Positions 1 through 37,662 of a stretch of DNA of 64,000 nucleotides are shown piece by piece. The number at the start of each line of letters is the position of its first letter. Position 1 is the stretch's first letter. Location: assembly GCA_964345605.1 (NCBI GenBank), contig CAYFSA010000001.1, positions 14,521-78,520 on the forward strand. Reading direction: 5' to 3'. Origin of the DNA: an uncultured Ectothiorhodospiraceae bacterium (GTDB lineage Bacteria; Pseudomonadota; Gammaproteobacteria; CAYFSA01). The translations under genes and the position numbers were made by a program. The notes beneath the pieces are model-generated. The model had not been told where the DNA came from, searched no databases, and saw only the letters and a list, made by a program, of their open reading frames with translations.

Positions 1-1
1 G

Positions 2-1458: not shown

Positions 1459-2480
1459 CAATCTGTCTCGGTAGCGGCTGCCCACAGCATCGCCAACAGC
1501 TCTGCCATGTCGATGGGCTCCGGCGTCAGGTCGCTCTCCCGCAAGCGGGTCAATTGCGCGACTAACGGCTGCACACTCTGGGCATCGTAATACAGCAGCA
1601 GCCAGGCGAGCGCGGCATCGAGCTCATGGCGGTAATCGGCCTGATTACCCCGCAAAGCCGCCAAGCGAGCCAATTCCAAGCGCAAAATCAACATCTGTCG
1701 CACAAAGGCATCAGTAGCCGGGCTCGGCATTGCTTGGGCCGGTTGATCATGCCGACGGATTTGCAAATGCCGACCCAGACGCTCGGCCAACCGTTGCTGC
1801 AGGGCTTTATCAGGACGGGCTGACGGATTCGGAGCATCCGCCTGAGCCTGTTCCTTCTGCTGAGCCGGCGATTGCAGACGGGTATATTTGGGCGGTAAGG
1901 GACCCGGATCTCGCACCAGCCGCTCTAACACCTCGGCACTTTCGCGGCCGCCTCGATATTGACCGAGTCGCGCCGCTTCCTGCTGAATGCGCTGGCTAAG
2001 GGACTGCAGCTCAGGCGCCTCGGGCAAGACCTCGACCGCTGCATTCAAGGCTTGCGCGGCGCCCGCGGGATCGTTTAGCAATTCGAGCTGGCGCTCGCCA
2101 ACCCGCAGTAAATACTCAACTTCGGCCAGCCGGAACGCCCGCCGGCCCTCTCCGGCCCGCGCACGCTCCACGGCTCGATGCATTTCGGTCAGGCGCTGCG
2201 TTTGCTGATCCAGCCGAGTTGCCAGGCTTGCCAAGCGGTTTTGGCGGGCGGCCTCGGCTTGCTGCCAAGCGCTCTGCAGCGCCTGTTGACGGGTCTGCAG
2301 ATACCAGCCGCTGACGCCGATCACCAGCAGCAGGAAGCCACTTGCGCCCCAAACCCAGCGGCGACATACCTGCCGAGGCGCTTGACTGGAAGGGGTTAGC
2401 ACCGTCTGAAAAATACGCTCAACCAGGGGCACAGCCCGAACGGTTTGGGCGATGCGTTGCCCCAGCTCACGCCAATTCAT
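1458..2480 (-). CDS. hemX: HemX-like membrane protein (putative uroporphyrinogen-III C-methyltransferase HemX family)
   Basis: Single TM segment (WGASGFLLLVIGVSGWYL) followed by a Q/A/R-rich coiled-coil region, typical of HemX. Start set at MNWRELGQRIA, where the ATG at 2480 overlaps the hemD stop; the longer track ORF overlaps hemD by 125 nt. Confidence 0.75.
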   Translation of the reverse strand: MNWRELGQRIAQTVRAVPLVERIFQTVLTPSSQAPRQVCRRWVWGASGFLLLVIGVSGWYLQTRQQALQSAWQQAEAARQNRLASLATRLDQQTQRLTEMHRAVERARAGEGRRAFRLAEVEYLLRVGERQLELLNDPAGAAQALNAAVEVLPEAPELQSLSQRIQQEAARLGQYRGGRESAEVLERLVRDPGPLPPKYTRLQSPAQQKEQAQADAPNPSARPDKALQQRLAERLGRHLQIRRHDQPAQAMPSPATDAFVRQMLILRLELARLAALRGNQADYRHELDAALAWLLLYYDAQSVQPLVAQLTRLRESDLTPEPIDMAELLAMLWAAATETD

Positions 2481-2484
2481 AAGC

Positions 2485-3288
2485 TTAATTGCACCGAGCT
2501 TGCCGCCATTGCAGCAGGGCCGCCAGCATGGCCTCATCACTCGGGTCATGGGCCACGGCGACGGTATTTTGCCAACCCGCATGCCGAGCCGCAGCCGCCA
2601 TGCGTTCACTGCCGACCAGCAAGGGCAAGCGCCGCAGCCATGGCCAACCCGCCTCGCCCCACAGGGCGATCAGGTTATGCAGGGCGTCGACGCTGGTCAC
2701 GGTCAGCAGGTCCAAGCCTCCCTCCCGACTGCGCTGCAGCCAGGGATCCAGGTCGACGTGCGGCATCCCGCGGCGATACAAATTGGCTTGGGTCACCCGC
2801 GCCCCCCGCGCGATCAGGGTCTCCTCAAGCAGCTCGCGGCCTCCCTCGCCCTTGCACAATACGACCTGCTGGCCCTGCACATGGTGCAGCGCTGCCAGCG
2901 CCAGTAAGCCTTCGCTGTCATAGCGGGTGGCAGGCTGCACGGTCGGCGGCAGGCCCGCCGCTGTCAGGGCTTGAGCGGTTTTGTTGCCGACCGCGGCAAT
3001 CGCCGGAGTGCGGCTGGCCGTAACCGGGTCCTGGTCCCTGGCCTGAAACCAGTGCATTGCTTCGGTAACCGCGGTCGGACTAATGAAAACCGCCAGATCA
3101 TAGTCGGCCCACGCCTGCATGCTGGCATCGCGCGCCCCGGGATCGGTGGGCGGCAGAATGGCCAACACCGGCAATTGCAAGGGCACCGCGCCTTGTTGTT
3201 GCAGCAACTCACAAAAACCGGCGGCACGCTCGGCCGGCCGCGTCACTAACACGCGCAATCCGGCCAGAGGCAGGGTTTGCTCCGACAA
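2485..3288 (-). CDS. hemD: uroporphyrinogen-III synthase
   Basis: 267 aa. MSEQTLPLAGLRVLVTRPAERAAG... matches the HemD N-terminus. It sits immediately downstream of hemC with a 3-nt gap. Confidence 0.85.
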   Translation of the reverse strand: MSEQTLPLAGLRVLVTRPAERAAGFCELLQQQGAVPLQLPVLAILPPTDPGARDASMQAWADYDLAVFISPTAVTEAMHWFQARDQDPVTASRTPAIAAVGNKTAQALTAAGLPPTVQPATRYDSEGLLALAALHHVQGQQVVLCKGEGGRELLEETLIARGARVTQANLYRRGMPHVDLDPWLQRSREGGLDLLTVTSVDALHNLIALWGEAGWPWLRRLPLLVGSERMAAAARHAGWQNTVAVAHDPSDEAMLAALLQWRQARCN

Positions 3289-3290
3289 GG

Positions 3291-4232
3291 CTACGCCTCG
3301 TCGTCGATCAAACCGAGCTCGGCAAGGATTTTGCCAGCCCCTTGCGCCAGCAAGTCATCAGCAACCCGATGACCCAGGGCTTCGGCCTCGGCCTGCGGCG
3401 CCCGGCCTTCGGCATGGTGAACGGGCTGGCCGGCGGGATGACCGACCAGGGCCCGCAAATAGAGTTCGCCGCCTTCCAAGGTGGCATAGCCAGCGATAGG
3501 CACCTGGCAGCCACCTTGCAAGCGGCGATTCATCGCCCGCTCGGCGCTGATGCAGTAATAAGTCTCGCTATCATGCAGCGGCGCGATCAAGGTTTCGATC
3601 TCGGGATCATTGCGCCGGCATTCGATCCCCAGCACCCCTTGGCCGATGGCTGGCAAGCTGTCGGCCGGCGAAATACGGTCGGTAATCCGTTCGGCCAGAT
3701 CAGCCCGCTCCAAGCCTGCCGTCGCCAAGACGATGGCGTCATAGACACCCTCGTCCAGCTTGCGCAGGCGGGTATGGATATTGCCTCGCAGATCGATGAC
3801 CTCAAGCCCCGGATAGCGCGCCCGAATCTGGCATTGCCGCCGTAAGCTGGATGAGCCCAGCCGGGCGCCGTCCGGCAGCTCCTGCAGATGCTTATAGGTA
3901 TTGGAAACGAAGGCATCCCGCGGATCATGCCGGGGCAATACCACCGGCAACTGCAATTTTTCGGTGATTTGTACCGGCACATCCTTGAGCGAATGCACGG
4001 CAATATCGGCCTCGCCGTTCAGCAGGCCTTGCTCCAGCTCTTTGACAAACAAGCCTTTGCCACCCACCTTGGCCAAAGGACTGTCGAGGAGCTGATCACC
4101 CTTGGTGGTCATTTTGCATAGCTCGACTTCCAGACCCGGATGCAGGGCCTGCAGACGGGCAGCAACGAATTCAGTCTGCACCACGGCCAACACACTCTGC
4201 CGGGTAGCGATACGCAGGGGACGATCAATCAT
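3291..4232 (-). CDS. hemC: hydroxymethylbilane synthase (porphobilinogen deaminase)
   Basis: 313 aa. [23 protein letters not shown]...[11 protein letters not shown] and the later dipyrromethane cofactor region are characteristic of HemC. Confidence 0.9.
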
Positions 4233-4422
4233 AAGCTTGGGCCTGACTCAAATGCTGAAAAACGGACATGGCGTGCCGCCTGGTGCAGCACGGCTCAGGT
4301 ATCGATCAAACGCCGCAGTATAACCCTCGAGGCCATACTGCGGAACCAGATGAACCGATAACACTAGACAAAAACCAGCCACCTGTCACCGGCGCTTATG
4401 CCATAATGCTGGATAAGCTTGT

Positions 4423-5301
4423 ATGAGCAGGAGATCAATTATCTTGAATAGCCGTGTGGGGTTGCTGATTGTCGTTGCCATGATTTTGGTCTACACAAGC
4501 CATGACCGACCGGCTGTAGCGGCCCCGCCTACCGAGCCGTCTGCCACGACAGAGCTGCTGCCCCCGCATTACCCGCAGGAAAGGGTTTTCGTGGATACCC
4601 AAAAGCTGCCCTGGCGGGCCATTGGCCGGGTCAACATGCTCGGCGGCCGGCGTTACTGCACGGGAATCCTGATTGGGGATCAGTATGCTTTGACCGCAGC
4701 GCATTGCGTGGCCGCGCTGCGCGAGCATCCCCGAGAAATCCACTTCCTCGCCGGTTTTCAACGCGATAACTATCGTGCCCACGCCCAAGCCGAAACCGTC
4801 ATCCTGTCTCCCGCTTACGCCCAAACTGACAGCAAGCGACAGCGGTTTGTCCACGACTGGGCGCTGCTTGAGCTCACCGCCCCTATCGGTCGCGAGATCG
4901 GCCATATTTCCTGGATCCCATTCGGCTTGGCAGACTTCACCAAAATCAAGCACTCAGGCTCGTTCATCGTCGCTGGTTATCGCAGTGATCGGCCTTATGT
5001 GCAAACCGCGGATCAACATTGTCGTATAATTGGCTTCACCGCCACCAGGCGCCTTTTTTATCATGGCTGTCCGCTGCGTACCGGGGATTCCGGCGGGCCA
5101 ATTCTCTGGCAGCAGAACGATGATCGCTATTTGTTGGTGGGTCTGTCGGTCGGCGGACTTATTGAGCCGCGCTCTATATCCCCTATGCAACTCAATACAC
5201 CGAATCTTAAAGTCGGCTATGCCATTCCTCTCGGGCGTCTGCAGACGACGTTTGCTACGCTAGACTTACAGCCAGCAATTATAGATTCCCATAATCATTG
5301 A
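4423..5301 (+). CDS. secreted trypsin-like (S1 family, glutamyl-endopeptidase-like) serine protease
   Basis: N-terminal signal/anchor segment. Catalytic motifs TAAHC (His) and GDSGGP (Ser) are present. Transcribed divergently from hemC. Confidence 0.8.
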   Translation: MSRRSIILNSRVGLLIVVAMILVYTSHDRPAVAAPPTEPSATTELLPPHYPQERVFVDTQKLPWRAIGRVNMLGGRRYCTGILIGDQYALTAAHCVAALREHPREIHFLAGFQRDNYRAHAQAETVILSPAYAQTDSKRQRFVHDWALLELTAPIGREIGHISWIPFGLADFTKIKHSGSFIVAGYRSDRPYVQTADQHCRIIGFTATRRLFYHGCPLRTGDSGGPILWQQNDDRYLLVGLSVGGLIEPRSISPMQLNTPNLKVGYAIPLGRLQTTFATLDLQPAIIDSHNH

Positions 5302-5346
5302 TGCCCTTCGTTTTCTGATACCGCTTCAGCAAAAAAGGCCGATTTC

Positions 5347-7227
5347 ATGTTTAAGTTTTCATCACTGTTGCGCTTTTGCTTAGTGCTGCTGGTTTGCCTG
5401 CTTGGCAGCGGCCAGGCCGGCCTTGCAGACGATACGTCCGCGCTAACCTATCTCAACCAACTGCGCGCGCAGGTCGCGATGCTGCCTTTCAGTCATCACG
5501 AGCAGTTGCAGCAAGCAGCGGCCAATCATGCTCAATATCTCACCTTGAACAATCTTACCGGTCATGACGAGCAAGCCGGCCGGTCGGGATTTACCGGCAC
5601 GGGGCCGGGCGAACGGGCCGTGGCAGTTGGCTACCCGAGCCGGCAGGTTAGCGAGAATATCTCCTATGGCGACAGCGATTATCGCCAATCTGTGGATGGT
5701 TTGATGTCAGCGATCTACCATCGCCACGGCTTTTTGGCTTTTGACCGAGACGAGATTGGCTTTGCCCGCTCAAGCTATCCCGATAACCGCCAGGCCTGGG
5801 TCTACAACATGGGCAATTCTTATGTGCGGGCTTTATGCAGCGGCGATGCTTTCACGGGCACAGGCCGATATTATATTGGGATATGCGAACCGGATATACG
5901 GCTCGCTGCAGCCGTCTATGAACAGGCTTTGGCGCAGCTCCCTGCAGCCAATCCCGAGTTAGTCGTCTGGCCACCGATCAATGGCACTGATATACCCCCA
6001 GCCTTTTTTGAGGAATCTCCTGATCCCCTGCCTGATTTCTCCGTCTCGGGCTATCCAATCTCCGTATTGTTCAATCCGGATGCTGTCACCACCGCCGGGG
6101 TCAGTCGCTTTACCCTCTACCGTCTGCCGGACGAGCACGAACTCGAAAACACGCGTGAACTCAACGAGTTCACCGATCCCAACCAGCGATTTAATAACTT
6201 ACAATACGCTCTGTTTCCTCTGGAACGCTTGGCATGGCATACGCGTTACCGTGTCGAGATCGACTACACCCAGGACGGCATTCCCTATACCAAACAATGG
6301 ACTTTCACCACCCGTGATTTGGGCATACCGGTCCACACTATTACCACGGGTGACACGCTCGAAGTGGTCGCCGGAGGGCGTTTTGCCGTATACATCCGAC
6401 CCAGCGACGCCTACCCAACGTTGTCGGCCGGGGGTGGCATAAGCTGGCGGTATCCCAGGGGGATGACGATCGACAGTGAATTTATCGATAGCAACACGGT
6501 TCAGCTAACCGTTGATGGTGCTGTCGGCGATGCGGCGGTATTTACTTACAATGACAGTTCCTCCTTTACCATTCGCCTGACAGAGCATGCCAATCAAGCT
6601 CCTAGCGCTGATGCGGGCGCTGACCAAGCAGTTACTGCCGGCGAGCTCGTCACCTTAACCGGTACTGGCAGCGATCCTGAGCAAGACCCGCTGACCTATG
6701 AATGGCAACAACTTGGCGAGCAAACGGTTGAAATCGTACCGGATGGCGCCAGCATACAATTCACCGCGCCGGGGGTAGCCACAGCTACGCCGTTCAATTT
6801 TGAATTGACGGTGAGTGATCCGCATGGCGCAAGTGACAGTGACCAAGTCACCCTAACAATCAGCCCGTCTGTCCTGCCTGCGGATATCGATGGCAACGGT
6901 TTGGTTGAGGAGATGGACGCGTTGATGCTCCTGCGCCATTTATTCGGTTTTCGCGGCGTTGCCCTCACTCAAGGCCTTGTCGATAGCGCCAACTGCCGAC
7001 GCTGTGACGCCATGGCCATCACCGCTTATCTCCAGGAGCAGCAAGCACGCTACGATATTGACAATAACGGCCAAGTTACCGCCCTGAGCGATGGCCTTAT
7101 ACTGTTGCGTTATTTGCGCGGTTATGAAGGTAGTGATCTCATTGCACAGGTAATCGATCAACAGGATTGCCGTCGTTGTGATACTGCCTCGGTGCAAACA
7201 TATATCGCTACGGAACTGGTACGTTGA
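5347..7227 (+). CDS. secreted multidomain protein: CAP (SCP/PR-1, YkwD-like) domain + PKD-like domain + two dockerin-like Ca-binding repeats
   Basis: Signal peptide MFKFSSLLRFCLVLLVCLLGSGQA. CAP-type motifs (LNQLRAQ..., HAQYL, SENISYG, HRHG). PKD-like ANQAPSADAGADQAVTAGELVTLTGTGSDPEQDPLTYEWQ. Two C-terminal repeats, DIDGNGLVEEMDALMLLRHL...CRRCD and DIDNNGQVTALSDGLILLRYL...CRRCD. Confidence 0.65.
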   Translation: MFKFSSLLRFCLVLLVCLLGSGQAGLADDTSALTYLNQLRAQVAMLPFSHHEQLQQAAANHAQYLTLNNLTGHDEQAGRSGFTGTGPGERAVAVGYPSRQVSENISYGDSDYRQSVDGLMSAIYHRHGFLAFDRDEIGFARSSYPDNRQAWVYNMGNSYVRALCSGDAFTGTGRYYIGICEPDIRLAAAVYEQALAQLPAANPELVVWPPINGTDIPPAFFEESPDPLPDFSVSGYPISVLFNPDAVTTAGVSRFTLYRLPDEHELENTRELNEFTDPNQRFNNLQYALFPLERLAWHTRYRVEIDYTQDGIPYTKQWTFTTRDLGIPVHTITTGDTLEVVAGGRFAVYIRPSDAYPTLSAGGGISWRYPRGMTIDSEFIDSNTVQLTVDGAVGDAAVFTYNDSSSFTIRLTEHANQAPSADAGADQAVTAGELVTLTGTGSDPEQDPLTYEWQQLGEQTVEIVPDGASIQFTAPGVATATPFNFELTVSDPHGASDSDQVTLTISPSVLPADIDGNGLVEEMDALMLLRHLFGFRGVALTQGLVDSANCRRCDAMAITAYLQEQQARYDIDNNGQVTALSDGLILLRYLRGYEGSDLIAQVIDQQDCRRCDTASVQTYIATELVR

Positions 7228-7314
7228 CTTGTCCAAGCAGCCGCCGCAGGCCCTCAAAGCAGCTATTTTCACCCTGATTAATCGCCACTTCATTTAGGAT
7301 GCGGAATGACAGGG

Positions 7315-8049
7315 CTATAAAGCCCGCACCAGCCGGCGGACTTCGGACGCATGGCGGCGGCTGACCTCAAGCTGCTCGACGATATCCTTTATCTGCACAC
7401 GCAGCCGACCATCGTTGCCGCGCTTGAGACCTGCCAGTGAGGCTATGGTTACCAGGGCATTGCGATGAATACGAATAAACGTCCCCGGGAAATTGGCCTC
7501 GAGCGTTTTCAAGGAATCCTCGATCAGAACTTCCCCGTCTTTATAGCGAACCGTGACGTATTTCTGCTCGGCCTGGCAGTAATACACTTGCTCGATCGGA
7601 ATCAAACGCAAAGCGCCGCGCTCGGTCGCACAAATATACGTATGCGCCTTGCTCGGCGACTGCTCGGCCCGCAAGCCTTCGAGCTGGGCCAGATTCGGGC
7701 GGCTAGCGCTGGTCAGGGCCTGTTCCAGTTCCTGCTGGCGTACGGGCTTGACCAGGTAGCCCATGGCATGCAGGGCAAAGGCCTCCAAGGCATGATCCGA
7801 ATAGGCGGTCACAAAGATGACCGCCGGTGCCGGCCGTAAGCGCAGGAAATATTGGGCGGCCTCCATGCCGTCCATGCCGGGCATGCGGATGTCGAGCAGG
7901 ACGATTTCAGGACGCTCGACTTGGCAATGCTCCAACGCTTCGACCCCATTGGTCGCCAAGGCACAAACCTCAAAGCCCTCGATCGCTTCCACCATGCTTG
8001 CCAGACGCTCCAGCGCTGGCTGCTCGTCATCGACCACAAGCACCTTCAT
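7315..8049 (-). CDS. LytTR-family two-component response regulator (AlgR-like)
   Basis: Receiver domain MKVLVVDDEQPALERL...DIRMPGMDGME plus a C-terminal LytTR DNA-binding domain. Paired with the downstream histidine kinase. The argH-kinase-regulator arrangement mirrors argH-fimS-algR of Pseudomonas. Confidence 0.85.
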   Translation of the reverse strand: MKVLVVDDEQPALERLASMVEAIEGFEVCALATNGVEALEHCQVERPEIVLLDIRMPGMDGMEAAQYFLRLRPAPAVIFVTAYSDHALEAFALHAMGYLVKPVRQQELEQALTSASRPNLAQLEGLRAEQSPSKAHTYICATERGALRLIPIEQVYYCQAEQKYVTVRYKDGEVLIEDSLKTLEANFPGTFIRIHRNALVTIASLAGLKRGNDGRLRVQIKDIVEQLEVSRRHASEVRRLVRAL

Positions 8050-8120
8050 GGCATTCCCCTTTGTTCATTGGCCCTGCGGACCAATCGATCTGGTTCCCCC
8101 GGGCCATTTATCGGTCGCAT

Positions 8121-9230
8121 TCAGGTGCCGGTATTACGCCAGCGAATCGTGAATTCAACTCGATAATGAGCCTGGGTTTGCGAAATTTTCAGGGGATCGG
8201 TATCGCCGTAAGCAAGCGTCAAGCGTTCCCGTACATTATCCTGGGCAATCTGGCTGCCACGCTTACTTCCCAAACGCTTTGCACCAGGCAATGGGTTGGT
8301 GACGGCAATCGCCACACCGGCGTTTTCGCACCTCACCTCCACGGTAACAGTGCCCCCCCCAGTCGCCGGCTCGATGCCATGGTAAATAGCATTCTCGACC
8401 AACGGTTGCAAAATCAACGCCGGCACCTCGATCGCCAGGGGTACCTCCGGATCCTCACGCCAATCCACGGTCAACCGCTGACCCAGGCGCAATGACTCGA
8501 TGTTCAAATAGCGCCGGGTTATGTCCAGTTCATTGGCCAATTTGACGTGATCTTGCTGCGCCAGCGCCACGCGAAACAGATCCGCCAAATCTTCCACCGC
8601 CTGCTCGGCCCACTGTGGTGAGCTGCGCGTCAAGCTCGCGATGGTATTCATCGAATTGAACAAAAAATGCGGCCGAATCCGGGCCTGGAGGGCCTCAATA
8701 CGCATCTGGGCCGCGGTTTTGAGCGGTTGCCGGGCGCGCTGATAGACCGCGAGCAAATAGCCGGCAAGCAAGGCTACCAACATGGCGACGGCCAGATTAC
8801 GTAGGACGAAACCTAGTTCATTGGCCACCGCCCCGGCAGTGCTTGGCCCAAACGGCCAGGCCAGCACAATGACCGAGCCCAGGATCGTTACCGCAGCTAC
8901 ACAAACCAGGCCGACCGCATAGGTATAACCGGGACGCAGCTGGTTGACATAGCCTCGCAGCAGACATAGCAAACCAACCACGATCCAGGTTACCACTTGC
9001 ACGAAAGCCGAGACGGCCAGCCCGTGTGCCAGCCAGTTCGCCGTTGTCACACCGGGCGCCAAGACCAGCAGCAAGGCCAGGACTTCAGCTAACAGCAGGA
9101 TCATCAGCCCATGTCGCCACCGGCAAGCAATGGCATGCCAACGCTTGTCCGAACGCTCATCTTTAACCATGAGGTCTACCTTGCTCCCTTGCTTGCCCGA
9201 TTCCGGAAACGCACAGACAAAATGATACAC
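8121..9230 (-). CDS. LytS/AlgZ(FimS)-type sensor histidine kinase (non-canonical His_kinase/HATPase)
   Basis: Multiple N-terminal TM helices, then a LytS-type His-kinase region ([15 protein letters not shown]) and an ATPase region. Start uncertain (9230 or 9170). Divergent from argH. Confidence 0.75.
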
Positions 9231-9266
9231 TGGCGATTTGCCAGTCGTGTACAGGTTTCAATAGTC

Positions 9267-10664
9267 ATGAGCAACCAAGCCAACAAATCCTGGGGAGGGC
9301 GTTTCGCCGAGCCCACCGACGCCTTTGTGGAAGCCTTTACCGCCTCTATCGGCTTCGATCATCGCCTGGCCCAGCTAGACTTGGCCGGCTCCCGCGCCCA
9401 CGCCCGGATGCTGATGCAAACGGGTATTCTGGGCCAGGCCGACGGCGAGCTCATTCTGACAGGCCTCGATGCCCTGGAACAGGACTTAGCCGCCGGCAAG
9501 CTCAGCTGGTCGGTGGCCGCGGAAGATATTCACATGAATCTGGAAGCCCAGCTCATCGACCGCATCGGCGAAGCGGGCAAACGGCTGCACACGGCACGCT
9601 CGCGCAATGACCAAGTCGCCACCGACCTGCGCCTGTATACCCGCGAGGCCATCGATCATCTGGAAACCGAGCTGCGCCGCCTGCAAACCGGCCTTTTGGA
9701 TCTCGCCGATGCTGAGGCCGAGACTATCATGCCGGGCTTTACCCATTTGCAGGCCGCCCAACCCGTCACCTTCGGGCATCACATGCTGGCCTGGCTGGAA
9801 ATGCTCGAGCGTGACCGTGAACGCCTGCTGGATGCCCGCAAACGGGTCAACACCCTACCCCTCGGCGCGGCCGCCCTGGCCGGCACCGGCTTTCCCATCG
9901 ACCGCCAGTACACCACTGAGCTATTAGGTTTCGAGCGGCCGGCGGCGAATTCCCTGGATGCCGTCAGCGATCGCGATTTCGCCCTAGAAGTCAATGCCGC
10001 GGGCGCCATCCTAATGGTGCATTTATCGCGTTTCGCCGAGGAATTGATTCTCTGGAATGCCACCCCATTCGGCTTCGTGCAATTACCCGATCGCTTCTGC
10101 ACCGGGTCTTCCATCATGCCGCAAAAGAAAAACCCCGATGTCCCGGAACTGATCCGTGGCAAAGCCGGCCGGGTCTTCGGCCATCTCATGGGCCTGCTGA
10201 CTCTGATGAAGGCCCAGCCGCTGGCCTATAACAAGGACAATCAGGAGGACAAGGAACCCCTGTTCGATACCCTCGACACCCTCACCGACAGCCTGCGGGC
10301 TTTTGCCGATCTTATCCCGCACTTGCGCGTCGACCGCGAGCGCATGCACGCAGCCGCCCGCGCTGGTTATGCCACGGCCACCGACCTGGCCGATTATCTG
10401 GTACGCAAAGGCATGGCCTTTCGCGATGCCCATGCCGCCGTCGGCCAGGCCGTGCAGCACGGCCTGGCGCAGGGCCTGGACCTCGCCGAGATGGACTTAC
10501 AAACCTTGCAAGGCTTCGCGGCCTGTATCGAAGCCGATGTCTATGACATATTAACGGTGGAGGGCTCGGTGGCCAGCCGTGACCATGTCGGCGGCACCGC
10601 GCCGGCGCAAGTGCGCCGGCAAATTGAGTATCATCGCAAGCGCCTGGCAAGGTTGGCGCAATGA
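9267..10664 (+). CDS. argH: argininosuccinate lyase
   Basis: [28 protein letters not shown]... and fumarate-lyase signatures. Start reassigned to the ATG at 9267; the ORF-track Met is 156 nt upstream and overlaps the kinase gene. Confidence 0.95.
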
Positions 10665-10700
10665 CTTGGCATTGCCATGCTTATTGGGTGATTCTAACGC

Positions 10701-10768
10701 AATGGGCGGGCTGAAGCCCGCCCTACTAGTTGGCGACCGACCGGTCGACTCTACTCACTCTCGCATCG
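10701..10768. repeat. hairpin-containing repeat A (GGGCGGGCTGAAGCCCGCCC-TACTAG-TGG... second palindrome ...CTACTC.CTCTCG); imperfect direct copy of repeat B at 14199..14273
   Basis: A 14-mer, gcccgccctactag, is identical to one at 14211..14224. Flanking similarity extends the match to ~70 bp. Contains a perfect 8-bp GC stem with a 4-nt loop. Confidence 0.6.
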
Positions 10769-11044
10769 CCTCAGCCAGGCCTTGACTTGTTCCGGGTCTA
10801 ATCGTTTAAGCAGCTCCTCCGGATCAAGCCCCTTCAGCCGCTCCTCCGCCGGCAGTTCATCCAAAAACGCCTGGCGCTCCTCCGGGGTCATGTTGTGCAG
10901 TAGCTGTTGATGCGTCTCGCGGATGAAGTCTGCCATCGTGTACGACATCGCCGGGTCCTCCAGGTGATAAGTCAGGTAAAGCTGCTGCAGCAATGCCCGG
11001 GAGCCCGGCCGGTGCCATTGGCGGATGCGTGCTTCGCGGTTCAT
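10751..11044 (-). CDS. hypothetical small protein (97 aa); last codons (..CESE*) are encoded by repeat A
   Basis: ORF with repeated LxPEE/LDPE motifs reminiscent of C-terminal regions of transposase-associated (Rpn/DUF4351-like) proteins. No firm family assignment. Confidence 0.35.
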   Translation of the reverse strand: MNREARIRQWHRPGSRALLQQLYLTYHLEDPAMSYTMADFIRETHQQLLHNMTPEERQAFLDELPAEERLKGLDPEELLKRLDPEQVKAWLRRCESE

Positions 11045-11240
11045 GGACGCTGTTGCCCCGGTTTGGCCTACAGGGTTTGCTCATCATCCCTGGCTGTATC
11101 GACAAGTTATGCCGCGGCTCCCCGGGCGCGGCGCACCCCGTCTGCCTTACCTCGCGACGCAGGATAACGCAAAGCTAACGTGCTGGGTGGAGCGAAGCGG
11201 AACCCAGTCGCGTTGAGCGCCATGTTAGAGTCACCGATGT

Positions 11241-11468
11241 TCATAGAAGCTCCAAAAATCCTTCAACGGAAAGGCGCGCCTGTTTCAGGATATGCGAAAG
11301 CGTAGATCGCTTAATCGGGCGGTGCGCCGGCACCGTAAGTTTCAGCACCTCGTCGCGAGTATGCTCATGAAGCCGGATATGGCTGCCACGTTGCCTAACC
11401 ACTACCCATCCATCTCGCTTCAAAGCAGTGATGACCTGCTCGTAGGCGAGGCTTGGAACCTTGCTCAT
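11241..11468 (-). CDS. hicA: HicA-family toxin (YcfA-like mRNA interferase)
   Basis: 75 aa. ...VVRQRGSHIRLHEHTR...LKLTVPAHRPIKRSTLSHILKQA is a typical HicA signature. A 4-nt overlap with upstream hicB. Confidence 0.8.
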   Translation of the reverse strand: MSKVPSLAYEQVITALKRDGWVVVRQRGSHIRLHEHTRDEVLKLTVPAHRPIKRSTLSHILKQARLSVEGFLELL

Positions 11469-11680
11469 ACAGCCACTTCTGTAATCTCGGAATCCGGCCC
11501 ATAAGCCGCGTCGTCTTCGACGGTCTCCAAGTACAGTTCGACGGCCTCCCTAATATTTTGTAGAGCCTCGTCTTTGCTATCTCCTTCGCTAATGCATCCC
11601 GGTAGGCTGGGAACGTACGCGGTGTACCCACCTTCCTCACTGGGCTCAAGAACAACTGCTAGCTTCATATCAATCTCCAC
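11465..11680 (-). CDS. hicB: HicB-family antitoxin (UPF0150)
   Basis: 71 aa. KLAVVLEPSEEGGYTAYVPSLPGCISEGDSKDEALQNIREAVELYLE is a typical HicB N-domain. Confidence 0.75.
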   Translation of the reverse strand: MEIDMKLAVVLEPSEEGGYTAYVPSLPGCISEGDSKDEALQNIREAVELYLETVEDDAAYGPDSEITEVAV

Positions 11681-11859
11681 AATTCTCTAATCTCAAAGAC
11701 TCTAACATCTAAGCATTTATCTGCCGTGCGCAGCATGGCGGATAAATGTCTGTTGAACTGAGCCGCCCCGACTGGGGGCACCCGCCGGGTGGTCTTCTCT
11801 TCAAGGGGGAAAGTATCCGGCGCCCCTGGGGCGCCTCGCACCGGACGGCGCGAGCCAGG

Positions 11860-12477
11860 TCATATCTGAGCCTTCCTTGAGCAGCCACTACCGGTCTCCT
11901 TGAAGCAGGCCGTGAGTTCGTTCCCCGGATACTGCACGAGCTCTACTTGAATTCCAACCGATGGCCCGCAAGTGACCGCGCCTCGCTCTGCGGGCGGTCT
12001 GCACACGTTCCGCCAATCGCTTCCAGCTACGGCGGCCGTTGTCAATGGCCAGGATACGGCCATTGTGGATGGCGCTGCGGTGCGTATAGCGCGAGAGGTA
12101 ACGCCCTGGCACAGCGGGCAGTGGCGATCCCGGCAACTGTAATACCAGGTTTGTTCCTTGTGACAGTGACCGCAGTGGAGCACCTGACCGCCCATCGCCT
12201 CGGTCCGACAGGACAGCAAGTGGCTGCTCACCTGCAAATACAAAAAGCGAATCCCGTTCAGATGAAGTCGACAACTGGTTGGAGACAACCCACGGCCCAG
12301 GACGAGATACCGAAAATACGCCTCCAGCTCTTCTACACTCAGATCATCCGGGGAACGGCCGTAGTGGCGGGCCAGTCGCTCCACCGCATGCAGGTAGCTG
12401 CCATGGGTACGGGGGGCAAAACCACGAAGCCGCATCGCCTCGATCATGGACTGCCGTAGCGGGCTCATCGTCGTCAC
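11860..12477 (-). pseudogene. remnant of a mobile element: phage-integrase N-terminal SAM-like domain fused in frame to the zinc-binding N-terminus of an IS91-family transposase; catalytic parts absent
   Basis: Residues 1-85 (EELEAYFRYLV...SCRLHLNGIRFLY) look like an integrase SAM-like domain. HCGHCHKEQTWYYSCRDRHCPLCQG matches the IS91-type transposase Zn-ribbon. The rest of the ORF is low-complexity read-through, and no HUH/tyrosine catalytic region follows. Confidence 0.55.
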
Positions 12478-12714
12478 TCCTCTGGTGAACGGCCACCATT
12501 GGCCTTATCCAGAGTCTCGACGATGGGAAGCGGAATGCAGGGTAATCGAAGCCAAATAAGCGAGCTACCGCGAAGCGGTTTAGTTCAACGCCGCTCAGCA
12601 CGCGCGGCTACGGAATGGAGGCGAAGCCGCAATGTAGTAGGCGTCGCCGTGCCTGGCCTTGTTAGGGCCTTGGAATCGGGATAGCATAATTGCATCGCCA
12701 CTCGCGGAGGCACC

Positions 12715-12951
12715 ATGACTACCGAAACATTAGAGCACCTACGCTCTCAGATTTCGACTCTCTCCGAGTCGGAACGCGCAGCGTTGGCTCGCGAACTCAT
12801 CATGAGCCTGGACGGCCCCCGTGACGACTCGGTCGAGCAAGCCTGGAACGATGAAATTGTTCGCCGTGTATCCAAGGTCAAAAGCGGAAAGGCCACGCTG
12901 CTCAGCCGCGAAGAATTCCGATCAAAGATGCGAGCGAGGTTAGGCCAGTAA
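12715..12951 (+). CDS. addiction-module antitoxin (ParD/RelB-like putative addiction module component)
   Basis: 78-aa protein. Its stop abuts the start of a ParE-like toxin gene 3 nt downstream. Confidence 0.65.
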   Translation: MTTETLEHLRSQISTLSESERAALARELIMSLDGPRDDSVEQAWNDEIVRRVSKVKSGKATLLSREEFRSKMRARLGQ

Positions 12952-12953
12952 CA

Positions 12954-13268
12954 GTGCGAACGGTAAGGATACTGGAAGAAGCCTCGCAGGAAGCGATAGA
13001 GGCAGCAGCATGGTACGAATTTGAGCAGGCTGGACTTGGAGCTGAGTTTTTCGCTGCCGTTGATGCCGCCATCGACGTTATTGAAGAAAACTTCATCCCC
13101 TTGTCACCTCTCCCCGATGAAGCTCGCGACACCGGTGCAAAACGCCTTATTCTGGAGCGCTTCCCCTACGATATAGTTGCGATTGAGTTGCCGGAAGAAG
13201 CGGTCGTAATCGCCATTGCCCACCACTCTCGTAAGCCCGGCTATTGGCTGGGACGTGGTAACTCCTAG
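12954..13268 (+). CDS. ParE/RelE-family toxin (plasmid stabilisation system protein)
   Basis: 104 aa. ...AIDVIEENFIPLSP...RLILERFPYDIVAIE...VVIAIAHHSRKPGYW matches the ParE/RelE fold consensus. Confidence 0.7.
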   Translation: MRTVRILEEASQEAIEAAAWYEFEQAGLGAEFFAAVDAAIDVIEENFIPLSPLPDEARDTGAKRLILERFPYDIVAIELPEEAVVIAIAHHSRKPGYWLGRGNS

Positions 13269-13405
13269 CCAGCATAAACGGCGCCCGACTAGGGCGTCCG
13301 GTGGAGGCCCTTCGGGCCGGAACGAATTTAATACATTTGTTAAGCATTGATTTTCCAGAGCACGCCCTAAGTACAATAACAAACGCTAGAAAGGACAACC
13401 GCTCA

Positions 13406-13579
13406 ATGAAAAATTTTTTAGAAGACCTAGCTGGATTGAGCGTTTCGAAGCTGTACCAGCACTTCAGGATGCGCGACCACCCCTACGGCCTACAGGATTC
13501 TCTGTCTACGCTTAACCTGTCTTGTTCGCACCTCCGTGCTCCGCCACAGGTCCAAGACTCGATACGTGTAGGTGGCTAA
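13406..13579 (+). CDS. small hypothetical ORF (57 aa) in an AT-rich pocket
   Basis: Good SD (AAAGGA) 10 nt upstream of the ATG. Local AT-rich composition unlike the surrounding sequence. No recognisable family. Confidence 0.3.
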   Translation: MKNFLEDLAGLSVSKLYQHFRMRDHPYGLQDSLSTLNLSCSHLRAPPQVQDSIRVGG

Positions 13580-13690
13580 CCCTTACCCGGCAGGGACTTT
13601 CACCCCGCAAGATACGCCGAGCTTTGCTCGGCGCGATAACGCCAAGCTCAGTCGAGCGAGACCGAAACCGGCTTCGGCTGGAGCAGTTCG

Positions 13691-14160
13691 TTAGAGAGCT
13701 TTCCTCATCGCCAAGTCACAACGGTCTGAGAGATGGCTCGGCGTGAACTCCATGAACCCGTACTTCCTGTAGAGCGCCAAGGCTTCTTTAAGACATGAAT
13801 TCGTCTCAAGCGTCATCTCCACAAACCCTAAACTCTTTGCGACAGCGATGGCATCGTCCATCATCGTCTTCCCCAAGCCTCGCCCTTTGAGTTCGGGTAG
13901 CAAGTACATCTTGCGCAATTCACAGGAATGACTTGTCGTTGGGAATATCCCGCAAGATCCGACAACCCGGCCGTCGCATTCGAGAATCCTGAACGCTCCG
14001 CCGTTCGACAATTACGATGCTTGGATGTTACGGATGTCTGCATCGGTTTCTTCAGGATTGGTGCTTAGCCCATATCCGGCAAGTACCCGGCAAGAGCCTC
14101 CTTCAGAATCCAGAACACGTCCTCTTCATCGTCTGGGCGGTAGTCGCGAAGTTGACACAT
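13691..14160 (-). pseudogene. GNAT-family N-acetyltransferase disrupted by frameshifts
   Basis: The C-terminal 106-aa ORF carries GNAT motif A (RGLGKTMMDDAI) and the YRKYGF motif. A GNAT-like N-terminus (MCQLRDYRPDDEEDVFWILKEAL) is encoded from 14160 in another frame and is followed by stops. Confidence 0.55.
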
Positions 14161-14195
14161 CGTGAATCTGCTCTCTAACCAGTCAATAAAAATAA

Positions 14196-14230
14196 TAAAG
14201 GCGGACTAAAGCCCGCCCTACTAGATGGCC
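14196..14230 (-). terminator. rho-independent terminator of the dynamin-like GTPase operon
   Basis: On the minus strand a GC hairpin (GGGCGGGCTTTAGTCCGCC) is followed by a T-rich tract (TTTATTATTTTTATT). Confidence 0.5.
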
Positions 14231-14273
14231 AGCTGTGGGTCGATTGAAATCGACCCTACTCCTCGCTCTCGGT
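14199..14273. repeat. hairpin-containing repeat B (GGCGGACTAAAGCCCGCC-CTACTAG-ATGG...GGGTCGATTGAAATCGACCC-TACTCCTCGCTCTCGG); direct copy of repeat A
   Basis: See repeat A. Overlaps the last codons (..TESEE*) of the dynamin-like gene. On the minus strand the first hairpin is followed by TTTATTATTTTTATT, so it doubles as a terminator. Confidence 0.6.
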
Positions 14274-15731
14274 TTGAGCACCAGCCAAGGTGCTCGGGTG
14301 GCTCGTGCCGGAAGGATTGGTAAACTGGTCGTTCAGCCGCTGAACATAGCGATCGGCGGTATCTCGCACAGATTTCAGGATGAGGCGTGAGCGCTTGCTC
14401 CAGCCCCAGGGATTGCGTCGCCACATGGGCCGCCAGAATTCGGTATTCTTGCGGAATGCAGCCACCAGATTGCCGGGCAATTTATCATCCTGCAGGGTAG
14501 CCGCCACTTTGTCCGCCATCAAGTTGCGGAATAGAAAATGAATACCGGCCAGCACCACGACCAGGGCGACCCCTAGGCCGATAGCAAGATTCGGCTGCGA
14601 GCCCAAGCCTTGCACGAAGCCGGCGATCTCCCCAAGGCCCCAGCCATAGTTGATAGCAACCCCACCAAAGACGAGCAAGATCGCCAAGACAGTCAGCCCG
14701 TCACCCGTCAGAGTAAGCTGCCGCCAACGCCGTAAGGCTTGCTGCAAACGCGGCACAACGGCAAATTCAATCTGCTCGCCGATATGGCTTAGCGTACCGA
14801 CGATACGGTAGACACGCTGCACGCCGACATCAGCAATGCGACTGTAAATCAGCTCCATGTCGTGATCACGTTTGCTGCGGAAACGCTCCCGCAGGCTCGC
14901 ATCTTCGATCGGCACCGCTGCCGTATCGCTATAAACGGCATAAAAGCGGCCGGCACTCAAACCATGCTTAGCCAGAGCCCGATGCCAGGCAGCCAGGACA
15001 TCCTCGGCGTTATCCTCGCGGGCAGTCGTGTCGATCTGGTTGAGTACAAACTGGAATTTGCCGAAATCGCCACGGTGATAGACGTTGGCGACCAGATGCT
15101 TAAGGGTATCCTGCATGGCGCCGGGCTCGGGACGGCGGGCATCGAACAGGACCAGCACCAGGTCCGATAAGTCCATGATATAGTCGGTAATACGCAGGGT
15201 CGAATCGCGCTGCTCATCAGCATCAAAGCCCGGCGAGTCGATAATGATCTTGCCACGCAAATGCTCGGCCCTGCAGGTCTTCATCTGGGTGTAGGTGTCG
15301 ACCCGCATGCCCTCACCCGGTGCGACATGCTCAATTTCGTCGGCAATTTGATAAAACGGAAAGCGCGGATCAGAATCCAGGGCCCGGCCAGGCAATTCGT
15401 GCACCTGATCATCCTGGCTAAAACAAATAACAGTGAATTTGTCATCCACCGCTTGGTTACCCGTATCCTGCAGTTTCTTGCCGAGGAAATCATTGATGAA
15501 CGTGGATTTGCCTGCCGAATAAGTACCTAGGACGGTAATGAGCGGCCACCAGGAAATTTTCGTGGCAAAGGACTCGTCAGTTTCCAACAGGCCGAGCTTG
15601 TAGGCAACCCGATCAAGCTCACGAAATTCTTTGGCTGCCTCGACCAGGATGGGATTTTCCAATTGCAGATGCTCGGTCAGGGCATCGAGTCTGAGCTGTA
15701 ACACGCTATTGGCTTGTGACATGCTATTCAC
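14256..15731 (-). CDS. dynamin-family large GTPase with C-terminal membrane hairpin (bacterial dynamin-like protein, LeoB-like)
   Basis: G1 GTYSAGKST, G3 DSPG and G4 NQID motifs. Two hydrophobic helices near residues 340-400. Its start overlaps the stop of the upstream gene by 4 nt. Confidence 0.75.
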   Translation of the reverse strand: MNSMSQANSVLQLRLDALTEHLQLENPILVEAAKEFRELDRVAYKLGLLETDESFATKISWWPLITVLGTYSAGKSTFINDFLGKKLQDTGNQAVDDKFTVICFSQDDQVHELPGRALDSDPRFPFYQIADEIEHVAPGEGMRVDTYTQMKTCRAEHLRGKIIIDSPGFDADEQRDSTLRITDYIMDLSDLVLVLFDARRPEPGAMQDTLKHLVANVYHRGDFGKFQFVLNQIDTTAREDNAEDVLAAWHRALAKHGLSAGRFYAVYSDTAAVPIEDASLRERFRSKRDHDMELIYSRIADVGVQRVYRIVGTLSHIGEQIEFAVVPRLQQALRRWRQLTLTGDGLTVLAILLVFGGVAINYGWGLGEIAGFVQGLGSQPNLAIGLGVALVVVLAGIHFLFRNLMADKVAATLQDDKLPGNLVAAFRKNTEFWRPMWRRNPWGWSKRSRLILKSVRDTADRYVQRLNDQFTNPSGTSHPSTLAGAQTESEE

Positions 15732-34419: not shown

Positions 34420-34806
34420 GGCAGTATCCGCCCCAAAAAAAAGACGCTGGCTGCGCTCATGGGAACACCTTCTGGGCTAAGCGCATGGGGACCCCTGTCG
34501 TTTGCTAATGCCTGGTCTGCCAGCTTACCCAGCAAACGGGTCAGGGACAAGCGGAAGACACTGCAAATTACCGACGCAGCGCCGGGTAGGGGCAGCTTCA
34601 ACCGACCGCCTCGCCTGCATGAAAGCTCGGCGAGGCGGGTTAAAACCCGCCCTACAGCGCCCTTGCCGGGCAGCGCATGCGCTTAACTTAATGGCAGTGC
34701 CCTAGAGGGCAGGGGTGCGAAAACTTATGAAACAATTGATAAGAATGCCATGGCCATGATCATAGGGTTGCCGATCCGGATTCAGTATACTGATTGAGAA
34801 TTCTTA

Positions 34807-36090: not shown

Positions 36091-36807
36091 TTGCGACAAA
36101 TCGTCCTGGATACCGAAACAACCGGCCTGGAGCCCAGTGAAGGCCATCGCATTCTGGAAATCGGCTGCGTCGAGCTGCAAGATCGCCGACTTACCGGCAA
36201 CGACTTCCATTGTTATCTCAACCCTGAACGCGAGGTCGATGAGGGAGCCTTGGCGGTGCACGGGCTCGATCAAGCCCTGTTGGCCGAAAAGCCGCGCTTC
36301 GCCGAAGTCGTCGGGGATTTCATGGCGTATCTGCAAGGCGCCGACGAGCTGCTGATACACAATGCGCCCTTCGATGTCGGCTTTATCGACCAGGAGCTCG
36401 CGCGGGTCGGCGGGCAGTGGTCGCATCTGGCCGCCTATCATCACATCGTCGATACCCTGGTGCTCGCACGACGCAAACGTCCGGGCCAACGCAACAGCTT
36501 AGATGTCCTGTGCAAGCACTACCAAGTCGACAATTCTGGGCGCGCATTGCACGGCGCCCTGCTGGACGCGCGTTTGTTGGCAGAAGTGTATCTCGCGCTC
36601 ACCGGCGGCCAGAGCAGCCTGGCCCTGGGGCACGCCGATGCTGGCGAAGCCGGCGCACGCCCCCGCCCGGTCGCCGCCGAGCGGTCCCGGCTGCCGGTCA
36701 TCGCGGCCAGTGCTGCGGAGCTGCAGGCGCATGCCAAGGTCCTGGAAGTCATTGACAAGGCGAGCGGCGGACGTTGCCTGTGGTCCGCAATGCAGGCTAG
36801 CAATTAA
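36091..36807 (+). CDS. dnaQ: DNA polymerase III epsilon subunit (3'-5' proofreading exonuclease)
   Basis: Exo motifs IVLDTETTGL, HNAPFDVGF and HGALLDA. Non-ATG (TTG) start. Confidence 0.9.
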   Translation: MRQIVLDTETTGLEPSEGHRILEIGCVELQDRRLTGNDFHCYLNPEREVDEGALAVHGLDQALLAEKPRFAEVVGDFMAYLQGADELLIHNAPFDVGFIDQELARVGGQWSHLAAYHHIVDTLVLARRKRPGQRNSLDVLCKHYQVDNSGRALHGALLDARLLAEVYLALTGGQSSLALGHADAGEAGARPRPVAAERSRLPVIAASAAELQAHAKVLEVIDKASGGRCLWSAMQASN

Positions 36808-36845
36808 CCGCTCTGCGCCCGTTGTTTTAACTTCCAGGCATTGGG

Positions 36846-37183
36846 TCGGTCGAAACCGACCCAACCAGTTGCCGTAGGGCGGGTTTCAACCCACCCCACC
36901 ACAGCCAAATGCCGGCACCGCTTGGTCGAAACCGACCCAATCCAGTTGCCGTAGGGCGGGTTTCAACCCGCCCCACCGCGGCCAAATGCCGGCACCGCTT
37001 GGTCGAAACCGACCCAACCAGTTGCCGTAGGGCGGGTTTCAACCCGCCCCACCGCAGCCAAATGCCGGCACCGCTCGGTCGAAACCGACCCAATCCAGTT
37101 GCCGTAGGGCGGGTTTCAACCCGCCCCGCCGCAGCCAAATGCCGGCACCGGCTCGGTTGCAAGCAACCGAGCCGACCGATCAG
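36846..37183. repeat. tandem array of four ~77-bp repeat units, each with two nested hairpins, ending in a strong 11-bp-stem hairpin
   Basis: Units start at 36846, 36924, 37001 and 37077, with periods of 78, 77 and 76 nt and >90% identity. Each unit has GGTCGAAACCGACC and GGGCGGGTTTCAACCCGCCC palindromes. The terminal hairpin GGCTCGGTTGCAAGCAACCGAGCC (about 37151..37174) abuts the smpB stop. Confidence 0.85.
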
Positions 37184-37662
37184 TGCTCCTTAAGAACCCG
37201 CGCTTTCTCCCGCTGCCAATCGCGGGCCTTTTCCGTTTCGCGTTTATCATGGGCCTTCTTACCCTTGCCCAGCCCGATTTCCAGCTTGGCCAAGCCCTTT
37301 TTCCAATACATCGCCAAGGGCATGAGGGCGTAACCCCGCCGCTCGACCAGGCCAATGAGCTTATCCAGCTCGCCGCCGTGCAATAACAGCTTGCGGTTGC
37401 GGCGTGGATCGGGGGAGACATGTTTGGAGACTGTAGGCAGCGGCGAGATGTGCGCGCCGAACAGCCAAGCCTCGGCATCTTTGATCATGACGTAGCTTTC
37501 TTTAAGCTGTATCCGTCCGGCACGCAAGCTTTTGACTTCCCAGCCCTCGAGTACCAGTCCTGCTTCGAAGCGTTGCTCGATGGCAAAGTCAAAGCGGGCA
37601 CGCTTGTTCAAAGCGATGGTGCTGCCGCCCGTGCTGGATTGTGACTGCTTCTTTTTACTCAT
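37180..37662 (-). CDS. smpB: SsrA-binding protein
   Basis: ..[31 protein letters not shown]...[11 protein letters not shown] is the canonical SmpB sequence. Confidence 0.9.

Follow-up and report, generated by a model that had tools for sequence, protein, structure and literature searches.

A probable BIME-like cluster of GTAG-tagged REPs between convergent dnaQ-like and smpB genes in an uncultured gammaproteobacterium

The tandem array that lies between a dnaQ-like exonuclease gene and smpB in an uncultured Chromatiales/Ectothiorhodospiraceae-like gammaproteobacterium is very probably a BIME-like cluster of GTAG-tagged REPs, as judged from the 64-kb window (that is, the whole stretch of 64,000 nucleotides that was analysed) together with the corresponding loci of relatives. 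A clear REP/BIME-type cluster would thereby be added for an uncultured organism of this kind, whose nearest named SmpB homologues are 73-79% identical and whose locus occurs in samples that include Andean microbial mats. The two flanking genes are convergent, with dnaQ on the plus strand and smpB on the minus strand, and their Pfam identities (PF00929 and PF01668) uphold the placement of the array given by an earlier, sequence-only reading of this DNA. Most of the 372-nt spacer between them is occupied by the REP cluster, whose first hairpin begins 33 nt downstream of the stop codon of the dnaQ-like gene. The features of the locus, in which H1 and H2 denote the two hairpins of each unit, are as follows:

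36091..36807, plus strand: dnaQ-like exonuclease gene (RNase_T/DnaQ-type; PF00929), next to RNase H
36841..37179, unstranded: whole REP cluster, 4 units of 76-79 nt each plus the terminal hairpin
36841..36864, minus strand: H1 of unit 1, full form, an inverted REP (iREP); stem TTGGGTCGGT/ACCGACCCAA, loop CGAA
36874..36896, plus strand: H2 of unit 1, a REP; GTAG + GGGCGGG TTTCAA CCCACCC, one stem mismatch
36897..36921, unstranded: long linker, one example of a segment present in every unit; CACC(A/G)C(A/G)GCCAAATGCCGGCACCGCT
36922..36940, minus strand: H1 of unit 2, 5' arm truncated, 5-bp stem in the fold
36951..36973, plus strand: H2 of unit 2; GTAGGGCGGGTTTCAACCCGCCC, perfect 8-bp stem
36999..37017, minus strand: H1 of unit 3 (repeat families, unit table)
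37027..37049, plus strand: H2 of unit 3 (H2 pattern, GTAG scan and stem search)
37075..37093, minus strand: H1 of unit 4 (repeat families, unit table)
37104..37126, plus strand: H2 of unit 4 (H2 pattern, GTAG scan and stem search)
37149..37174, unstranded: terminal H1-like hairpin; CGGCTCGGTTGC-AA-GCAACCGAGCCG, -20 kcal/mol
37180..37662, minus strand: smpB (PF01668), stop codon TGA at 37182-37180

Tandem Repeats Finder reports one strong array in the window, at 36848-37150, with a period of 77, 4.0 copies, 96% matches and a score of 557, and an equally good super-period of 153 nt; the unit start-to-start spacing from the repeat-family analysis is 76-78 nt. The four head-to-tail units of ~77 bp and >90% identity that the sequence-only reading had described are thus borne out, as are the palindromes and the conserved segment that it quoted, since every one of these motifs was located in the array. 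Indeed, GGTCGAAACCGACC starts at positions 36848, 36924, 37001 and 37077, GTAGGGCGGGTTTCAACCC(G/A)CCC starts at 36874, 36951, 37027 and 37104, and the linker segment CCAAATGCCGGCACCGC has four copies in the window, all of them within the array. The linkers alternate between a short one of ~8 nt (CAGTTGCC) and a long one of ~27 nt, the latter including an 8-nt palindrome, TGCCGGCA.

Each 77-nt unit consists of two related GC-rich hairpins. H2 reads GTAG-GGGCGGG-TTTCAA-CCCGCCC on the plus strand and forms a perfect 8-bp stem with a 4-nt loop, while H1 is a GGGTCGG/CCGACCC version that lies on the strand opposite to H2. As read from the sequence, the two stems differ by compensatory changes (TC..GA vs CG..CG), and we therefore regard H1 and H2 as two subtypes of one palindrome family. 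The arms of H1 in unit 1 are complementary over 10 nt, with nine of the 10 positions paired by RNAfold, and the inner H1 copies of the array fold into a stem of merely 5 bp. In the window strain, decay has turned the H1 tag into GTTG or ATTG (CAAC or CAAT on the plus strand); in unit 1 it is GTTG on the minus strand of the window and GTAG (CCCTAC on the plus strand) in a divergent strain. There, unit 1 reads GGGTCGGTTGAAACCGACCCTAC-CAAACACC-GTAGGGCGGG, with H1 ending in CTAC and this CTAC facing the GTAG of H2. Considering this arrangement, and that the minus strand of H1 aligns to H2 better than its plus strand does, the unit is best read as an inverted heterodimer, with the orientation call for the inner H1 copies resting on the decayed tag. 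The tagged ends of the dimer are ~8 nt apart, and a linker of ~27 nt connects it to the next dimer.

The arms of the inverted pair formed by H1, linker and H2 are complementary at 19 of 23 positions, by a count made by eye in the divergent strain; the centroid fold of the array favours two separate hairpins over a single long REPIN hairpin. The folding that had been proposed for the units found both strands to be far stabler than shuffled sequence (z = -8.2 for the plus strand and -10.3 for the minus strand). The array was also said to end beside smpB in a hairpin with an 11-bp stem, and this holds: its two 12-nt arms (37149-37160 and 37163-37174) are 100% complementary, the stem is 11 bp in the fold, and the hairpin stands 5 nt from the smpB stop codon, with the pairing in RNAfold reaching to within 1-2 nt of it. 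Because this terminal hairpin aligns in register with the H1 copies, to which it is 78% identical, we count four H2 and five H1-type hairpins in the array.

The array is not the only place where this family is found. The H2 pattern has 11 matches in the 64-kb window versus 0.01 expected, and a scan for GC-rich hairpins preceded by GTAG returns only seven sites in 64 kb, namely the four H2 copies plus 10726(-), 14259(-) and 34655(-); the elements at 14221 and 10754 likewise begin with GTAG when read from the sequence. Copies of the H1-type pattern occur at 14237-14259 and in array unit 1 (36843-36865). In all, the family is found at four loci in 64 kb, each of them outside credible genes. The window contains 22 perfect stems that are 8 bp or longer, of which the family supplies seven; block shuffles give 2-13 such stems each, with a mean of ~6. 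The members outside the array are these:

10704..10726, minus strand: H2-type family member, GTAGGGCGGGCTTCAGCCCGCCC; 40 nt downstream of argH
10732..10754, minus strand: H1-like degenerate palindrome, GTAG-tagged, GTAGAGTCGACCGGTCGGTCGCC (GTAGAGTCGACC...); in direct orientation to the REP at 10704
14200..14221, minus strand: H2-type family member with one mismatch, GTAGGGCGGGCTTTAGTCCGCC
14237..14259, minus strand: H1-type family member, GTAGGGTCGATTTCAATCGACCC
34586..34607, plus strand: degenerate GTAG element, GTAGGGGCAGCTTCAACCGACC; faces the REP at 34633, as read from the sequence
34633..34655, minus strand: H2-type family member, GTAGGGCGGGTTTTAACCCGCC; inside a segment of ~150 nt, 34585-34737

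Related single hairpins had been proposed near 10704, 14201 and 34635, and all are present, those at 10704 and 14201 being doublets rather than single elements; argH and the dynamin gene, named as neighbours, both have Pfam support. At the loci 10704 and 14200, an H1-type element is followed by an H2-type element on the same strand, in direct and not inverted orientation, and the dynamin-family ORF 14256-15731(-) takes its TAG stop codon from the GTAG of the element at 14237-14259. The third locus is arranged otherwise, as 34586-34655 forms a REPIN-like inverted pair in which the spacer ends are complementary. The segment 34585-34737 is missing from the divergent strain, with ~20 unrelated nt in its place. 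The GTAG tag on all family members had gone unmentioned in the sequence-only reading. We also considered whether the REPs at 10704 and 14200 bound a variable island, a notion that was dropped, as positions 1-14232 of the window are collinear and 99.94% identical in a JGI strain.

How does this family compare with known repeats? Published features of such repeats match the array (PMC3733652, PMC3333891 and PMC2817692, Nunvar et al. 2010). As regards the properties of a REP, short GC-rich stem-loop palindromes are present (H2, H1 of unit 1 and the terminal hairpin), a 5' GTAG stands at the foot of the palindrome in four of the four array H2 copies (GTTG/ATTG in the array H1), and extragenic copies are dispersed over four loci in 64 kb. 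As regards those of a BIME, the orientation alternates, subtypes are paired and linkers alternate, and the tandem units are conserved and variable in copy number. The REP/BIME-like family suggested in the sequence-only reading is well supported by these same traits, that is, the GTAG tag, the dispersed extragenic copies, the alternating subtypes and linkers, and the strain-variable copy number.

Members of the GTAG REP super-family have stems of 6-9 bp and short loops (Di Nocera, De Gregorio and Rocco 2013, PMC3733652); they are frequently dimers, including heterodimers with unlike stems, and their clusters are tandemly reiterated dimers (PMC3733652). Where such REPs lie between convergent ORFs, their distance to the ORF ends is usually <20 bp, and the GTAG tag is sometimes the TAG stop codon of an ORF; the super-family includes the SMAG repeats of Stenotrophomonas, and 24 GTAG families have been published (PMC3733652). 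The array shares with them the tag and the GC stem, the heterodimers, the tandem dimers, the placement between convergent ORFs near their stop codons and, within its family, the TAG stop codon, a likeness drawn from the description of the 24 families; a difference is that two loci of this window are head-to-tail dimers. E. coli BIME-2 elements are multiple tandem copies built from two inversely oriented REP types and a short linker (Ton-Hoang et al., PMC3333891), copies that are well conserved at each locus and differ in number among strains (PMC3333891). The TnpA-REP protein requires the GTAG tag, and its strand transfer can build tandem copies; for the protein to bind, the E. coli REP must have a mismatch in its stem (PMC3333891). 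The array is like E. coli BIME-2 (y and z2 REPs) in its inverse subtypes, its short and long linkers, its 5' GTAG and its variable copy number, and unlike it in that there is no sequence similarity, the array stems are perfect 8-bp GC stems and the tag of one array partner has decayed. No sequence relationship to the enterobacterial y/z REPs was found, and as a blastn search with the array found no match in 5,426 E. coli genomes, we do not count it as a member of the y/z family. We take the array to resemble a BIME-2 cluster and to belong to the GTAG REP super-family.

Further afield, the family can be followed through the degenerate H2 pattern GTAGGGCGGGNTTNANCCCGCC, which has at least 152 matches in at least 119 stretches from many phyla in a genome contig scan; the taxa among the matches listed include Rhodobacterales, Lysobacteraceae, Thermoanaerobaculia and others. 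No related genome emerged when the window was compared by blastn with the 119 GTAGGGCGGGNTTNANCCCGCC-bearing stretches among the matches listed. RAYT, or TnpA-REP, is a Y1 HUH transposase, and REPs are defined by a high copy number, usually >100 per genome, and by a cognate RAYT gene flanked by REPs (a REPtron). No RAYT gene was found by motif or tblastn searches in the 64-kb window, in ~7 kb of extra flank or in this organism's contigs, and the ~7 kb of additional flank held no further REP copies. The weak hits of the RAYT search were translations of the REPs themselves. Elsewhere, three RAYT genes among the matches listed scored well above the 80-bit cutoff of the NCBIfam equivalog NF047646 ('REP-associated tyrosine transposase'), which served as the RAYT model, and each is directly flanked by GTAGGGCGGG-type REPs:

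L060, Sedimentitalea MAG: NF047646, 165.5 bits
L081, Sulfitobacter sp. F26204: NF047646, 137.2 bits
L115, Aestuariivita boseongensis: NF047646, 153.5 bits

A RAYT remnant in Lysobacter koreensis (L113) reached 75.2 bits; as this is below the cutoff and the remnant is flanked by a different REP, it was not counted. Also among the matches listed, an alphaproteobacterial MAG (L061) carries a tandem array of REPs of the same class with a period of 79 nt. Both likenesses and differences emerge in relation to REPINs and RAYTs (Bertels and Rainey 2011, PMC3116915; PMC2817692): an inverted pair of REPs separated by a short spacer, the pair at 34586-34655 with its complementary spacer ends and the RAYT genes flanked elsewhere by the same REP class are shared, while the predicted fold of the array is two hairpins and not one long REPIN hairpin, and no RAYT was found in the sequence of this organism that was examined.

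The composite unit behaves differently from the single elements. The 77-nt unit with its linker has no copy elsewhere in the window, in the JGI metagenome scan, in the E. coli genomes or among plasmids, and blastn of the array against the PLSDB plasmids gave no match; the linker CCGCNGCCAAATGCCGGCACCG has three matches in JGI metagenome contigs, a collection without this locus, as the known JGI contig was not among the matches, and these are chance matches, unrelated and, by eye, apparently coding. Since the unit is unmatched outside the locus, we consider it a local amplification and not a dispersed BIME type.

The history of this amplification can be read from the same locus in several metagenome assemblies, recovered by exact-protein look-ups:

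Window allele: spacer 372 nt, 4 units
L002/L123 (ERZ922771): spacer 372 nt, 4 units, flank identity to the window 99.90%
L001 (JGI 3300012002): spacer 219 nt, 2 units (unit 1 + unit-2 type), flanks 99.93-99.97%
L125/L140 (ERR2437276): spacer 219 nt, 2 units (unit 1 + unit 4), flanks ~99.8%
L139 (SRR17886269): spacer 143 nt, 1 unit, flanks ~99%

The comparison of array lengths in related strains that had been suggested from the sequence therefore has a definite outcome: strains that are 99-99.97% identical in their flanks carry one, two (as two alleles, 2 and 2') or four units. The two 2-unit alleles have different junctions, which implies at least two independent events of 153 nt, and a one-base T indel, found in units 2 and 4 and absent from units 1 and 3, agrees with the two-unit register in which these events occurred. 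A more distant strain cluster, the divergent strain referred to above (SmpB 98%, DNA 94-97%), has the array too, in contigs that end inside it. Its units are alike among themselves and unlike those of the window (the short linker is CAAGCACC vs CAGTTGCC, and H1 is GGTCAAAACC), which argues for concerted evolution of the array units within the locus. Several assemblies break within the array, which accounts for the assembly breaks of this organism at the locus; with its one, two or four units, the spacer is a convenient strain marker. On the other side of the comparison, the gene order (SNF transporter, smpB, dnaQ, rnhA, methyltransferase) is shared by Ectothiorhodosinus mongolicus, whose SmpB is 79% identical and whose smpB-dnaQ spacer is just 7 bp long. 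We therefore regard the array as a lineage-specific insertion that was amplified afterwards, and as a clean natural case in which a REP dimer, once inserted into a 7-bp spacer, was gained and lost in tandem.

What might have driven these events? A RAYT, acting on the single-stranded hairpin and its GTAG tag, would have spread the family, a step suggested by the REPs of the same class that flank RAYT genes elsewhere. An element was inserted into the minimal smpB-dnaQ spacer in this lineage, and the number of tandem copies may have shifted by slippage, by unequal recombination between units or by RAYT strand transfer. The array would lie in the 3' untranslated regions of the two convergent genes and, if it is transcribed, its stable hairpins, which lack a U-tract, would hinder 3'-5' exonucleases and attenuate read-through, and not serve as intrinsic terminators.

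The position of the terminal hairpin raises a further question: could it affect smpB itself? In E. coli, REPs ≤15 nt from a stop codon are reported to cause ribosome stalling and to lower expression, according to a summary in PMC12306157, and by analogy the terminal hairpin near the smpB stop codon could lower SmpB synthesis. Taking the analogy further, the smpB mRNA could itself undergo REP-induced stalling at its stop codon and then trans-translation by tmRNA-SmpB, such that SmpB would limit its own synthesis and the number of units would tune its dosage. The terminal hairpin is identical in the 94-97% divergent strain, where the adjoining linkers and the 3' end of smpB have changed, and this is weakly consistent with constraint. 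We nonetheless rate autoregulation of SmpB as unlikely, because the syntenic relative has no hairpin and because one allele, that with a single unit (L139), carries a mismatch in the stem of the terminal hairpin (G to A). Were it true, strains with different numbers of units downstream would differ in how stable the 3' end of the mRNA is, and with it in their SmpB dosage. Only this putative link between a stop-codon-proximal REP hairpin and smpB would be of wider interest; otherwise, the array matters mainly for annotation.

Could the array be a purely local tandem duplication with chance palindromes, linked to no mobile REP family and devoid of function? Considering that the 77-nt unit and its linker are confined to this locus, that unit number drifts freely between strains and that a relative copes with a 7-bp spacer, this would account for part of what we see. 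It does not account for the GTAG tag and the two stem types common to three other intergenic loci, one of which is itself polymorphic for presence and absence, nor for the same REP class flanking RAYT genes elsewhere, and we find it very unlikely. A neutral, selfish status is compatible with the REP reading, and the contradiction is thus limited to the claim that there is no family link.

The sequence-only reading had also offered a structured small-RNA locus, and a small-RNA gene or cis-regulatory RNA beside smpB would fit the very stable structure predicted for both strands, and perhaps the extended H2 stem, which is stabler as RNA of the minus strand (-25.9 kcal/mol, via G-U pairs) than of the plus strand (-19.7 kcal/mol). 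This alternative finds no support. No Rfam family was found at threshold (the best score was 25 bits vs a 70-bit cutoff), and the spacer (36808-37179) has no promoter-like or terminator-like site, the sole terminator-like hit being inside smpB. Copy number is moreover unconserved, at one to four units among strains that are ≥99% identical, and the syntenic relative is without the array; taken together, such an RNA is most improbable. An Rsm-type sRNA was set aside on reading the sequence, as the hairpin loops have no GGA motif.

A bidirectional intrinsic (Rho-independent) terminator serving the convergent dnaQ and smpB genes would explain why GC-rich hairpins lie close to both stop codons. However, no array hairpin is followed by a T/U run, so that a canonical intrinsic terminator, a hairpin then a U-tract, is absent. 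Nine hairpins are present where one would suffice, and the 7-bp spacer of the syntenic relative has no hairpin whatsoever, which leaves us with very little belief in this role.

As for a protein-coding repeat, a 111-aa ORF (minus strand) and a 94-aa ORF (plus strand) do cross the array, and the 153-nt double unit is divisible by 3, but the chance that either is a gene is next to nil: neither matches Pfam, a single unit measures 76-78 nt, repeat composition alone predicts that both strands are open, and the 229 nt by which the 1-unit and 4-unit alleles differ are not divisible by 3 and shift the frame. We hence treat the array as non-coding, in agreement with the sequence-only reading, which had called these long ORFs artefacts. 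It had likewise excluded a CRISPR array, rightly so: the units abut with no unique spacers between them, every inter-hairpin segment is repeated, and the best CRISPR-DR Rfam score is 18.8 bits vs a 36-bit cutoff. An integron attC array was rejected, there being no cassettes between the units, as was an IHF site in the linkers, in which nothing fits the WATCAANNNNTTR consensus by eye. ARAGORN found no tRNA or tmRNA genes in the window, in line with the earlier remark that no tmRNA gene was recognisable there. In a Chromatiales relative, ssrA stands directly after smpB.

Within the dnaQ-smpB array, the long linker of every unit carries the 8-nt sequence TGCCGGCA, a perfect palindrome with a GCCGGC site inside it; in the first unit it lies at 36909-36916. 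Mutated forms of this palindrome are TACCGGCA, in the 1-unit allele (L139), and GGCCGGCA, in a single unit of the divergent strain. A similar array is found in an alphaproteobacterial MAG (L061:1328-1873), where GTAG-GGCGGG-type REPs are arranged in tandem with a 79-nt period, at least four regular copies lying on one strand together with inverted copies; this shows that amplified clusters of the GTAG-GGCGGG REP class recur in unrelated genomes.

Elsewhere in the window, the two hairpin types occur as doublets, at 10704-10754 and 14200-14259, which share the linker motif CTAGTAGGGCGGGCTT. In both doublets the H1-type and H2-type REPs are head-to-tail, i.e. in direct orientation, whereas in the dnaQ-smpB array they are inverted. 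At the second doublet, the TAG stop of the dynamin-family ORF (14256-15731, minus strand) is supplied by the GTAG tag (14256-14259) of the H1-type REP at 14237-14259 (minus strand), and the hairpin therefore begins directly at the stop codon. A different arrangement is seen in the ~150-nt segment 34585-34737, where a REP at 34633-34655 and a decayed GTAG element at 34586 form an inverted pair, REPIN-like, around a spacer with complementary ends. In the divergent strain (L127), which is 94-97% identical to the window, ~20 unrelated nucleotides replace this segment; the divergent PP2C/methyltransferase promoter region is polymorphic for the segment's presence or absence.

REPs were also found inside coding sequence: RAYT genes of three Rhodobacterales genera carry a GTAGGGCGGG-class REP or REP pair in frame within the transposase ORF, as follows.

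L060:810-875, intra-ORF REP in the RAYT gene of a Sedimentitalea MAG
L115:591-668, intra-ORF REP in the RAYT gene of Aestuariivita boseongensis

The REP of the Sulfitobacter sp. F26204 gene (L081) is probably intra-ORF as well, within ORF 696-1214, and with this probable placement the insertion site is identical across all three. In translation the REP reads GGVNPAL or AGLKPGL; it falls between the motifs RAGF and G.WQ.RFWEH and inserts ~12-17 extra residues relative to the NF047646 profile.

As for the smpB neighbourhood, a Chromatiales MAG whose SmpB is 75% identical (L134:3044-3407) has a tmRNA gene, with the tag ANDDNYALAA, directly after smpB; the window organism and Ectothiorhodosinus instead have smpB convergent with dnaQ, and no tmRNA gene was found within the 64-kb window. 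On the dnaQ side of a 2-unit locus (L140:3779-3939, contig ERZ922774 k127_397314), similarity to the window dnaQ is lost upstream of the gene's last ~160 nt, and the contig terminates at this unrelated stretch, which could reflect either chimerism in the assembly or a variant with a rearrangement.

Finally, between argH and the dynamin-family gene, positions 13458-13600 (minus strand) match the Rfam family RF02005 (group II intron domains D1-D4) at 50.4 bits, against a cutoff of 49 bits; as the match spans just 143 nt, it is probably a fragment or end of such an intron.
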